A stretch of 64,000 bases of DNA. Origin: Minisyncoccota bacterium (GTDB lineage Bacteria; Patescibacteriota; Minisyncoccia; Phycocordibacterales; UBA918). Location: assembly GCA_041389025.1 (NCBI GenBank), contig JAWKSP010000001.1:256002-320001 (forward strand). Direction: 5' to 3'. Positions 18,703 to 20,309 of the stretch are shown here, piece after piece. Within the stretch, counting starts at the first letter, position 1; the number at the start of each line of letters is the position of its first letter. The notes beneath the pieces were generated by a model. The model searched no databases. It saw only the letters and a program-made list of their open reading frames with translations, and was not told the DNA's origin. Position numbers and translations under genes: made by a program.

Positions 18703-18744
18703 GGCCGAAGGGAAAATTTTAAGCTTAAAATTTTCCCTTCGGCC
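18703..18744. repeat. long palindrome with GAAAATTTT...AAAATTTTC core (copy A)
   Basis: ggccgaagggaaaattttaagcttaaaattttcccttcggcc. The core is shared with 19715-19758 and 20270-20309. Confidence 0.7.
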
Positions 18745-18910
18745 GCCAATTAATTTGCGGTCGAATATATAGTTCTTTAAAAATAAAACGTAACTTAATT
18801 ATAATCATTAATTATAAATATCAGTTACAGCTCTAAAAATTTAAAAATATTTTTAAATTCTTAGGGCTGTAACTGAGGTGTTTTTGTAATGATTTAAAAG
18901 GAGAGTAATC

Positions 18911-19465
18911 ATGAATAATACAAGATTTATTAATTGGTCAGTTGTTGAGATTGATTTAGATTCTAATTCTGATAATAGAGATTTCCCTGATTTAAAAGTG
19001 TTACCAACTTTAAATGATTGTCTTTCAGTGTTTTATCCAGACAGACAGTTTTCAGGTCAGTTTCACTTAGATATCGTTGAAATAAATATCTCTGAGTTGA
19101 CTGAAATTTCTGGGCACAAGATAGTGTCAAAAGAAGATATTTTTGAGGCGGCAAAAAAAGCTGGATATAGTTTTTTTCCAAATGGTTTTGCTTTAGCTTT
19201 TTGTAGACAACAAAAGGAATTAATAAAAAACCGTCTTAATAAAAATGAGCACTATCACGTTTTGGTTAAACCATTTAGGTATTTGTATAGCGATGGGGCG
19301 ACTCTAAGTTTGTTGCGAGATTCAGATGATTCACTTTGTTTGTCCGCCAACTCAGGATTTCCATCTGCTATTGAGCCTGACAGTGTTTGGTTGATGGTTA
19401 AGAGTTTGGAGGTCAAACAAATGGACGGGATTTTGACTCGTAATAAAAAATTAGTCACGGTTTAA
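18911..19465 (+). CDS. hypothetical protein (184 aa)
   Basis: Good ribosome-binding site (AAAGGAGAG). No recognisable domain. Lies between P1 and P2. Confidence 0.5.
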   Translation: MNNTRFINWSVVEIDLDSNSDNRDFPDLKVLPTLNDCLSVFYPDRQFSGQFHLDIVEINISELTEISGHKIVSKEDIFEAAKKAGYSFFPNGFALAFCRQQKELIKNRLNKNEHYHVLVKPFRYLYSDGATLSLLRDSDDSLCLSANSGFPSAIEPDSVWLMVKSLEVKQMDGILTRNKKLVTV

Positions 19466-19509
19466 TTCAAGTTTACAGTTTTATTTAACGCGAGGTTGTG
19501 ATAACCTCG

Positions 19510-19538
19510 CGTTTTTTATTTGACAGGATAGATGGTAA
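19510..19538 (+). promoter_or_regulatory. consensus sigma-70 promoter (TTGACA-N17-TATACT) driving leaderless peptide P2
   Basis: ttgacaggatagatggtaaaaattatact. The 3' 15 nt are identical to the P1 promoter. ATG at 19546. Confidence 0.65.
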
Positions 19539-19545
19539 AAATTAT

Positions 19546-19653
19546 ACTAATAATTATGAAAGCAAAAACAGCGACTGTTTCATATGGTGTAATAGAGCAA
19601 ATAATTATTTCAATTATTAGCATTATTATTAGCTTTATGAGCGGGTCGGTTTT
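19546..19653 (+). CDS. small hydrophobic peptide P2 (35 aa)
   Basis: MKAKTATVSYGVIEQIIISIISIIISFMSGSVLFL. Confidence 0.55.
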
Positions 19654-19676
19654 GTTTTTGTAAAAGATAATCAAAA

Positions 19677-19703
19677 GTAGATAAACAAAAATCCGGCCAC
19701 AGG
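19677..19703 (+). terminator. intrinsic terminator after P2
   Basis: aaaatccggccacaggccggatttttt. The same hairpin sequence recurs after P4 at 22055-22084. Confidence 0.75.
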
Positions 19704-19714
19704 CCGGATTTTTT

Positions 19715-19758
19715 GAAATTGAGTGATTGATTGGTGAAAAATTTTCTAAAGAAAATTT
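19715..19758. repeat. long palindrome with GAAAATTTT core (copy B)
   Basis: gattgattggtgaaaaattttctaaagaaaatttttcaccaatc. Confidence 0.7.
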
Positions 19759-19833
19759 TTCACCAATCCGTGACCAAGTAAATAAATCATTGATTGGATT
19801 TAGATAGTTCTTTAGGTTAAATAAAATAAGGTG

Positions 19834-19983
19834 GAGGACAACAATGAATAAACATAATAGGCAAGTTACATTTAAATTTGGTAGAAATGAAACCATTGAT
19901 CCTGCTCAAAGAAGAGTAAAAGATATAATTAAAGCGGTTAATAGTCGCAATCGTAAAAGAAAGGAAACGGAACAAAAAACTTA
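19834..19983 (+). CDS. small basic protein (49 aa)
   Basis: MNKHNRQVTFKFGRNETIDPAQRRVKDIIKAVNSRNRKRKETEQKT, with a strong ribosome-binding site (AAGGTGGAGGA). Confidence 0.45.
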
Positions 19984-20061
19984 GGATCATATTATTATGA
20001 ATATAATCAAAAAGCCATGTGTTGATAGAGCATGGCTTTTACTTTTGTGGTGGAAAAAGTG

Positions 20062-20089
20062 TTGACACTCAAATTCATGGGTATATACT
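20062..20089 (+). promoter_or_regulatory. consensus sigma-70 promoter (TTGACA-N16-TATACT) driving leaderless peptide P3
   Basis: ttgacactcaaattcatgggtatatact. The ATG at 20096 lies 7 nt after the -10 element. Confidence 0.65.
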
Positions 20090-20095
20090 GAAAAT

Positions 20096-20203
20096 ATGCA
20101 AACTATTGCAACAACTACAACTTATCGTTCATTCAAGTACATGGTTACGATTGTGCTCGTTTGGGCTATTAGCTATGTAAGTCTGTCGGTTGGCGTGCAA
20201 TAG
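20096..20203 (+). CDS. small hydrophobic peptide P3 (35 aa)
   Basis: MQTIATTTTYRSFKYMVTIVLVWAISYVSLSVGVQ. Closest to P4, sharing the M(K/Q)TIATT start and the SVGV end. Confidence 0.6.
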   Translation: MQTIATTTTYRSFKYMVTIVLVWAISYVSLSVGVQ

Positions 20204-20216
20204 CGAAGGAAAAAAT

Positions 20217-20248
20217 AAAAGGAAATAAAACCGACCAGAAAAAGGTCG
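20217..20248 (+). terminator. intrinsic terminator after P3
   Basis: aaaaccgaccagaaaaaggtcggttttatttt. Confidence 0.75.
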
Positions 20249-20269
20249 GTTTTATTTTGAAAGATTTTA

Positions 20270-20309
20270 AAAAATTATTGACTGATGAAAAATTTTCTTA
20301 AGAAAATTT
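20270..20309. repeat. long palindrome with GAAAATTTT core (copy C)
   Basis: gactgatgaaaaattttcttaagaaaatttttcatcagtc. Confidence 0.7.

Follow-up and report, generated by a model that had tools for sequence, protein, structure and literature searches.

Three long palindromes with embedded candidate promoters and overlapping predicted hairpins between peptide units and orphan genes of a Minisyncoccota bacterium

Promoter-overlapping dyads, 5′ stabiliser hairpins, RNase III stems and leader-peptide attenuators are each known individually. Stem-loops at the 5′ terminus protect mRNA from 5′-end-dependent decay in E. coli and B. subtilis, the leaders of E. coli ompA and of B. subtilis aprE and ermC being such stabilisers, and intercistronic hairpins processed by RNase III are found in the early region of phage T7 and in the rnc and pnp leaders. 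To our knowledge, almost nothing has been learnt about transcription control in the Patescibacteria, or candidate phyla radiation (CPR), whose genomes are tiny and have few regulators. We describe here three long palindromes, P1 to P3, in 64,000 nucleotides of DNA from a Minisyncoccota bacterium (assembly GCA_041389025.1, contig JAWKSP010000001.1, positions 256,002 to 320,001; this whole 64-kb stretch, whose own numbering is used below, is called the window). Each palindrome lies between the terminator of a strongly promoted, leaderless peptide unit (U1 to U3) and the next gene (A to C). The reading that we favour from the sequence, tentatively and as a possibility, is that P1-P3 act in cis, from within the leader regions, to regulate the orphan genes A-C, a promoter and a hairpin being combined in each. 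They look neither like terminators nor like mobile repeats. What we have not seen described is the combination: a perfect 40-bp palindrome housing candidate −35 and −10 elements, whose right arm is common to a second, transcript-specific hairpin, the whole occurring in triplicate in a CPR genome, each time after an attenuator-like leaderless unit. A full-text literature search found nothing relevant to this arrangement.

The preliminary description of the region reported three long palindromes, and three are indeed present in the window, with lengths of 40-42 bp. P1 (18703-18744) is perfect with two arms of 21 nt, P2 (19729-19768) has arms of 19 nt separated by 2 nt, and P3 (20280-20319) is perfect with arms of 20 nt; none of them is assigned to a strand. 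The coordinates given earlier were right for P1, whereas those for P2 (19715-19758) and P3 (20270-20309) were 10-14 nt too low. Likewise, the core first proposed (GAAAATTTT-N6-AAAATTTTC) is exact in P1 but has two mismatches in P2 and in P3; allowing up to two mismatches it has 3 matches for 0.10 expected. The truly common core is AAAATTTT-N6-AAAATTTT, which reads AAAATTTT-AAGCTT-AAAATTTT in P1 (18713-18734), AAAATTTT-CTAAAG-AAAATTTT in P2 (19738-19759) and AAAATTTT-CTTAAG-AAAATTTT in P3 (20289-20310). Fourteen AAAATTTT octamers occur in the window, six of which form the three pairs of P1-P3, and no other pair with a 6-nt spacing was found in it. The outer arms differ (GGCCGAAGG in P1, GATTGGTG in P2, GACTGATG in P3) and the palindromes start 8-22 nt past the terminator T-run of units 1-3, with none after unit 4, both as originally described. 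P2 and P3 are identical at 35 of 40 positions (87.5%), their two arm differences being compensatory, and their flanks can be aligned only with numerous mismatches and gaps. Between P1 and P2/P3 the 8+8-nt core is common and each arm difference is compensated.

Folded as a hairpin (H1), the three palindromes have energies between −24 and −35 kcal/mol, whichever strand is used, with z-scores between −7 and −10; 200 shuffles gave no fold of equal stability. The + strand fold is better than that of the minus strand in all three, by 0.9-2.9 kcal/mol. As a background control, a degenerate core pattern was scanned in viral contigs and 120 random matches from the listing were assessed: the palindrome extended into the arms by at least 7 bp in one of them, against three of three for P1-P3. 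The fold z-scores, the core counts and this control bear out the earlier view that the palindromes are not due to chance. In an independent Logan assembly of run SRR28338157 the window recurs exactly. Its contigs stop or start within P1 and P3, which is how de Bruijn assemblers behave when they meet genuine palindromes; the palindromes are therefore not a scaffolding artefact of the metagenome-assembled genome (MAG).

Each palindrome holds a candidate promoter on the + strand, reading towards the following gene (A, B or C, respectively). Promoters were scored with a simple, generic sigma70 position weight matrix (PWM), which measures consensus match only and for which a score of at least 8 occurs 1.3 times per kb. 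The candidate in P1 (18701-18731; TTGGCC, 19-nt spacer, TAAAAT) scores 9.1, the top of its intergenic region. The one in P2 (19727-19756; TTGATT, 18-nt spacer, GAAAAT) scores 7.1, within 0.6 of the best. The candidate in P3 (20278-20307; TTGACT, 18-nt spacer, GAAAAT) scores 9.6; the second score of this module, 5.9, is a one-base shift of the embedded site, the next distinct site scores 5.3, and a separate promoter scan also lists the P3 candidate (9/12). The embedded candidate is thus the best in modules 1 and 3 and near-best in module 2, a module being a peptide unit with its palindrome and gene. The register is the same in all three palindromes: the −35 begins 2 nt before the palindrome and consists of TT plus its first four bases, while the −10, (T/G)AAAAT, begins 2.5 nt to the right of the centre and is taken from the right-hand AAAATTTT box. 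The TT that precedes each palindrome is not mirrored on the right flank (GC, CG and TG), so that the dyad symmetry is broken on the left side only. This register is absent from all nine other palindromes of the window that are not terminators. Counting 7 nt from the embedded −10s predicts starts at 18738, 19763 and 20314, a rule chosen because the leaderless AUGs of U1-U4 and of the neighbouring extracytoplasmic function (ECF) sigma factor gene sit at +7 to +9 from their −10 elements.

A second predicted hairpin (H2) overlaps the right half of each palindrome on the + strand. It is formed by the outer right arm of the palindrome paired with a near-copy of the left arm found 20-30 nt downstream. 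In module 1 (18738-18765), the right arm TTCGGCCGC pairs with the downstream GCGGTCGAA through 11 bp, including one G·U and two A-U pairs past a one-base bulge (−13.6 kcal/mol), and the hairpin starts 7 nt after the −10. In module 2 (19763-19797), CCAATC.GTGA pairs with TCAT.GATTGG (10 bp, −9 kcal/mol), also 7 nt after the −10, and in module 3 (20311-20353) a 17-bp stem with three G·U pairs (−21 kcal/mol) starts 4 nt after it. When folding is begun at 18738, 19763 and 20314 the first nucleotide lies in the stem in all three modules. The pairing of the right arm with the next 69 nt of the + strand beats shuffled sequences (p < 0.0005, 0.046 and < 0.0005 for modules 1, 2 and 3), and the same test found no upstream partner for the left arm. 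On the minus strand H2 pairing is weaker, collapsing where it relies on G·U pairs. Control runs on the other 21 palindromes gave one trivial comparable case in 42 tests.

The left arm, the right arm and the downstream copy differ among the three modules and match within each: GGCCGAAGG, CCTTCGGCC and GCGGTCGAA in module 1, GATTGGTG, CACCAATC and TTGATTGG in module 2, GACTGATGA, TCATCAGTC and GGCTGATGA in module 3. Compensatory changes and G·U-dependent strand specificity, as expected of a conserved RNA secondary structure, are found for H1 and H2, a conservation that rests on three paralogous copies and that perfecting of the DNA palindrome could mimic in the case of H1. A 7-9-nt direct repeat flanking each core was also considered as a target-site duplication, but the downstream arm copy of H2 accounts for it better. 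The promoter register, the second + strand hairpin and the three-way co-variation of the arms, all overlooked in the preliminary description, point to a function at both the RNA and the promoter level.

According to the favoured reading, transcripts starting inside the palindrome would begin at the base of H2 and would carry a 5′-terminal stem-loop acting as an mRNA stabiliser. The likeness to the ompA, aprE and ermC stabilisers is that H2 lies 4-7 nt past the candidate −10, at or no more than 3 bases from the predicted first base in all modules; the differences are that the 5′ ends are predicted ones and that H2 borrows its 5′ arm from a larger DNA palindrome, of which it is the right arm. 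RNA reading through from the upstream unit would include the left arm and would fold H1 (19-21 bp), precluding the full H2, the predicted energies being −26 to −35 kcal/mol for H1 against −9 to −21 kcal/mol for H2. H1 would be of sufficient length for an RNase III substrate. The element would in this way give each orphan gene a start site of its own, and mark it or insulate it against read-through from the strong upstream unit. The core would need no binding protein: its right box could be held as −10 and discriminator and its left box by base pairing to the right arm, which would explain its conservation. The conserved core is compatible with the protein-recognition site suggested earlier and would be equally explained by the −10 and the pairing of the left arm; the term insulator-like, also used then, is compatible with the position of the palindromes between a strong unit and the leader of the next gene. 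We consider it rather a long shot that P1-P3 represent a new type of transcriptional boundary element in a CPR bacterium, a 40-bp dyad with a promoter and a three-part arm system that folds according to the origin of the RNA, RNA from internal starts having a protective 5′ hairpin and read-through RNA a long double-stranded one marked for cleavage, so that the cell would tell the two sources apart.

The region between H2 and the genes has further features. The motif AGTTCTTTA follows each H2 on the + strand (18771-18779, 19806-19814 and 20382-20390) and is found 6 times in the window for 1.8 expected. AGTTCTTTG stands at the equivalent place (1541-1549) in L004, a related locus presented below. 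Both versions lie between the terminator or palindrome and the Shine-Dalgarno (SD) sequence of the next gene, 33-38 nt before the AUG in three of the four cases. AGTTCTTTA may be an anti-SD element, since in modules 2 and 3 the predicted fold has it paired next to the SD. Its interpretation as an ECF-sigma promoter was rejected because it stands at no consistent distance from any −10-like element or, in module 1, from the start codon. In module 1 a 92-nt AT-rich imperfect palindrome (18803-18894) extends from a TATAAT (18800-18805) almost up to the ribosome-binding site of gene A. Within it lies a 16-bp stem (18821-18876), and the surrounding region folds with z = −7.7.

The peptide units upstream of the palindromes are of one design. 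U1 (18521-18696, +) has a TTGACA-17-TATACT promoter, a leaderless AUG at 18557 (MQNIANNSNLRSLSITYTFWFFSWLLSR) and a terminator at 18671-18696. U2 (19520-19716, +), with the same promoter, has its leaderless AUG at 19556, codes an Ile/Ser-rich peptide of 35 amino acids and ends with a terminator at 19687-19716. U3 (20062-20258, +; TTGACA-16-TATACT) has its leaderless AUG at 20096, codes 35 amino acids with a Thr-rich N-terminus and has its terminator at 20223-20258. U4 (21884-22085, +) is built like U1-U3, is followed by no palindrome, and gene D starts 62 nt past its terminator. These four are the only TTGACA-N16/17-TATACT promoters of the window. Their mRNAs are assigned as leaderless because the AUG lies 6-7 nt past the −10. 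The ECF sigma gene is probably leaderless as well, its AUG lying 9 nt past the −10 of a TTGGTT-18-TATAAT promoter (16424-16462). The unit open reading frames (ORFs) have 28-36 codons, with polar N-termini rich in Thr, Asn, Ser or Ile and hydrophobic C-terminal halves, and the peptides are 23-47% identical among themselves; a profile search of 1.84 billion proteins for further members gave only a spurious repetitive match. A strong terminator follows each stop codon by 19-27 nt. In U1-U4 and in a homologous unit of L004, the 5′ half of the terminator has an alternative partner (p = 0.008-0.034 for each of the five units), located at the very end of the ORF in U1-U4 and just past the stop codon in L004.

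On account of this alternative pairing at the ORF end the U units, though not the palindromes, look like leader-peptide transcription attenuators carried by leaderless mRNAs. As in thrL, ilvL and pheL, a short ORF in which a few residues (Thr, Ile, Ser, Asn) are frequent is followed at 19-27 nt from its stop codon by a terminator whose 5′ half can pair with a segment at the ORF end. They differ from these attenuators by the leaderless mRNAs, by the hydrophobic C-terminal halves of the peptides and by downstream genes that are orphans rather than biosynthetic operons, and no Rfam leader family reaches threshold for them. The unit of L004 (1340-1530), which belongs to a Ca. Pacebacteria MAG, has the same terminator core, comes directly after the anti-sigma gene and is not followed by a palindrome. 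In L004 and after U4 the next gene begins 44-62 nt past the terminator without a credible promoter.

Several points weigh against the favoured reading. As the space behind the terminators of U4 and L004 leaves no room for a promoter, read-through alone can, to judge from their layout, drive the downstream gene in this family of units. The embedded −10 is non-canonical (GAAAAT) and the spacers, of 18-19 nt, are long. Alternative candidates closer to the genes are present in modules 1 and 2 (scores of 8.3 and 7.7). There are three instances only, two of them close paralogues, so that the statistics of the register are weak, and they are post hoc. The symmetry as such could be explained without selection, by a mutational bias towards perfect palindromes, since the window holds 24 perfect palindromes with arms of at least 12 nt. 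Finally, the element is carried by none of the relatives found.

A purely RNA-level explanation is possible though doubtful. There would be no internal promoter; genes A-C would be expressed only by read-through of the attenuators and H1 would be a hairpin of the 5′ untranslated region, most plausibly an RNase III site. A cut in its outer stem would release the leader, and the new 5′ end would refold into H2 and stabilise the mRNA. The perfect stems of 19-21 bp suit RNase III and are lengthened by G·U pairs on the + strand; the advantage of this strand by 0.9-2.9 kcal/mol in all three palindromes and the + strand-specific use of the same right arm by H2 go in the same direction. P1-P3 resemble known RNase III processing hairpins by their predicted double-stranded stems of about 20 bp between transcription units but, compared with the T7 sites, their stems are perfect and lack the typical internal loops, and no gene for RNase III was noticed in the window. 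Both U4-gene D and the L004 unit provide examples of genes placed directly behind a terminator without a promoter, and the U units have their antiterminator-like alternative pairing, but the upstream terminators look strong. What this explanation leaves aside is that the AAAATTTT-N6-AAAATTTT core and the asymmetric TT were kept between P1 and P2/P3 despite the complete change of the arms.

It is unlikely that P1-P3 are DNA operators, where a symmetric protein (TrmB-like, or another dimer or tetramer) would bind the paired AAAATTTT boxes, 14 bp apart from centre to centre, and would either repress the overlapping promoter or stand as a roadblock past the strong unit upstream. The core is a 22-bp dyad, which is operator-sized, and it overlaps the candidate −10 and spacer; as in palindromic operators that overlap a promoter, for example those of antitoxins, LexA or Fur, the dyad has its centre over these elements. 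P2 and P3 are better conserved than their flanks, genes for four TrmB-like regulators and for HU (35085-35357) are present in the window, and the toxin-antitoxin-like operator at 57732-57761 (see below) is a precedent in the same genome. P1-P3 differ from such operators, however, by being 40-42 bp long and perfect, with no cognate protein identified. Their outer arms are site-specific and vary outside the core yet stay perfectly symmetric, which contact of a protein with the core alone cannot explain, and the third, directly repeated arm copy, predicted to pair at the RNA level, co-varies in each module and depends on G·U pairs, both of which favour pairing of RNA. An operator usually recurs at other members of the regulon of its dimeric regulator; no further operator-like sites were found in the 64-kb window and no similar dyad upstream of the three TrmB-like genes inspected out of four. 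The proteins encoded by the three downstream genes are unrelated, so autoregulation cannot be the general case.

It is improbable that the palindromes are functionless relics of a tandem-duplicated ancestral module whose symmetry was maintained through the correction of quasipalindromes by template switching. The modules are paralogues in tandem, perfect palindromes abound in the window (11 of the 24 just mentioned have arms of at least 19 nt), and the absence of the element from U4, from the U-like unit of L004 and from all relatives indicates that it is dispensable for the unit. Nevertheless, the core is invariant and P2 and P3 have kept 87.5% identity, whereas that of the peptide ORFs has dropped to 23-47% at the amino-acid level, and the asymmetric TT and the co-varying downstream arm copy are beyond the reach of template switching within the palindrome.

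That P1-P3 are back-up or bidirectional intrinsic terminators, or REP- or attC-like recombination or mobile elements, is hardly credible: they do lie directly behind the terminators of very strong promoters, the minus strand of P3 passes a lax terminator scan and several other gene-end hairpins of the genome lack clear T-runs, but no copy has a U-tract on the + strand, no target-site duplications flank them, no dispersed copies occur in the 64 kb, and, contrary to attC, it is the centre that is conserved and the ends that vary. The bidirectional terminator proposed in the preliminary description is at odds with the 8 nt that follow the stems, GCCAATTA, CGTGACCA and TGTAATCA in P1, P2 and P3, respectively; since none of these is a U-tract the palindromes are not taken as intrinsic (Rho-independent) terminators, and the terminator scan lists those of the upstream U units but none of P1-P3 on the + strand. 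P1-P3 resemble the repetitive extragenic palindromes and interspersed mosaic elements (REP/BIME) of enterobacteria as intergenic palindromes of about 40 nt just downstream of transcription units. REPs are, however, found as hundreds of dispersed imperfect copies with a GTAG head and a RAYT, whereas the three copies here are clustered within 1.6 kb, with no further core match in 64 kb. Pfam screens of the window ORFs of at least 100 amino acids detected neither a HUH/RAYT transposase nor a tyrosine recombinase, the only mobile-element gene among the ORFs screened being an rve-domain transposase about 7.5 kb away. Integron attC sites have outer R″/R′ boxes (GTTRRRY) that are conserved, a variable centre, extrahelical bases and an IntI integrase nearby; here the recombinase is lacking in the same ORFs and the stems are, moreover, perfect. 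In Rfam searches only tRNAs pass in the window, and for the palindromes the E-value mode returns nothing but generic hairpins (miRNA precursors) far below threshold. A type I toxin-antitoxin system with an antisense RNA running through the palindrome was also rejected, no conserved minus-strand promoter being found to the right of the palindromes.

The 24 perfect palindromes of the window are all intergenic and most sit 0-27 nt past a gene end. Several of them are without a clear T-run, namely those after tRNA-Arg (4957), after tRNA-Pro (14551), at 1173 and at 3309. A perfect palindrome of 44 bp (34860-34903; minus-strand context 34796-35085), unrelated in sequence, has a layout like that of P1-P3. 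It lies directly past the terminator of a short ORF-less promoter-to-terminator unit, which is located downstream of the HU gene and may code a small RNA; the TTGCAC-17-TAAGAT promoter of a gene coding 270 amino acids follows at 10 nt. This palindrome has neither an embedded promoter nor a downstream arm copy. The perfect 30-bp palindrome ATATGAATTTATCAT|ATGATAAATTCATAT (57732-57761) straddles the −10 of a TTGCAA-17-TATGAT promoter (read by eye) upstream of an ORF that was read by eye as similar to ribbon-helix-helix antitoxins. It looks like a toxin-antitoxin operator and is a precedent, in the same window, for a palindrome that overlaps a promoter. Two long GC-richer stretches without a convincing ORF (56460-57240 and 57780-58130) lie behind a TTGACA promoter at about 56551. 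They may be an unfamiliar structured RNA; the perfect palindromes 56939-56982 and 57148-57189 fall within these ORF-less stretches, for which no Rfam family is above threshold.

The window proteins match those of a Candidatus Paceibacterota MAG (locus tags R3B60_01450 to 01470), which include MEZ4103929-MEZ4103932. Downstream of P1, gene A (18911-19465, +; R3B60_01450) codes an ORFan protein of 184 amino acids and has its own predicted terminator (19487-19513). Gene B (19844-19984, +; R3B60_01455), downstream of P2, codes a basic ORFan of 46 amino acids and is followed by a hairpin read by eye. Gene C (20415-20612, +; R3B60_01460), downstream of P3, codes an ORFan of 65 amino acids followed by its own predicted terminator (20639-20663). 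The order on the + strand is CorA, hydrolase, ECF sigma, DUF5667 anti-sigma, U1-P1-A, U2-P2-B, U3-P3-C and MscS, then U4, gene D (321 amino acids) and a class-I glutamine amidotransferase; a trypsin-like protease follows on the minus strand. Genes A-D have no match in Pfam, NCBIfam, PHROGs or PADLOC. No homologue of gene A was found among 5.8 billion proteins and its AlphaFold model (predicted local distance difference test, pLDDT, 31) gives no usable structure. Gene D has one homologue (50% identity) on a 1.7-kb ENA contig, in which a terminator remnant and then a palindrome, GAATTCTTATTT-N11-AAATAAGAATTC, are found about 90 nt upstream of the start of the gene D homologue (L178, positions 55-100). 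TrmB-like proteins seem to be the main transcription-factor family of the window, with four winged-helix regulators in 64 kb (8242-8997, and on the minus strand 9134-9973, 29746-30561 and 55628-56458).

Nine GTDB relatives (L001-L009) were found through MscS (42-62% identity), and synteny is kept. Their frame consists of CorA, hydrolase, sigma, anti-sigma, a gap of 0.9-2 kb, MscS and protease, the frame genes in 14813-25229 of the window being 40-69% identical at the protein level to those of L001, L005, L007 and L009. The orphan modules occupy two places of this frame, the gap after the anti-sigma gene (U1 to C) and the site after MscS (U4-D-E). Because the relatives keep the frame but lack the U-P-gene modules and U4-D-E, the modules are assigned, from this comparison of sequences, to a lineage-specific variable spot. 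No palindromes like P1-P3 were found in the nine syntenic loci.

A metagenome scan for GAAAAATTTTC-N4-GAAAATTTTTC returned 48 contigs, none related to the P1-P3 locus, and no close relatives of this locus were found in the public collections searched. Matches from low-GC contigs lie in unrelated surroundings, namely a gene-end hairpin, the tpiA-pgk spacer, the interior of a nifS-like ORF and what reading by eye suggests is a 23S rRNA intron. Most matches belong to a dispersed element of high-GC organisms that bears no relation to this locus: GAAAAATTTTCG-NN-CGAAAATTTTTC recurs in contigs with 58-71% GC (L130-L177), often 7-10 nt from GAAGATTTTTCG-NN-CGAAAAATCTTC (for example L130 2825-2890, L171 3757-3808 and L174 5923-5986). 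Most copies come shortly after the end of a gene, and in three contigs a copy directly precedes an ORF that was taken by eye for the delta subunit of sarcosine oxidase (soxD). This appears to be a dispersed REP-like or operator-like element.

The locus brings together, within 3.6 kb, four near-consensus promoters for leaderless attenuator-like units and three palindromes that each seemingly join a promoter with two mutually exclusive hairpins. Should the palindromes be neutral, it would still show how strongly this genome tolerates or creates long perfect palindromes. If the favoured reading is true, the locus would provide concrete coordinates for checking in metatranscriptomes, and would be a compact and testable case of cis-encoded regulation and insulation between tightly packed genes in a lineage not yet grown alone.

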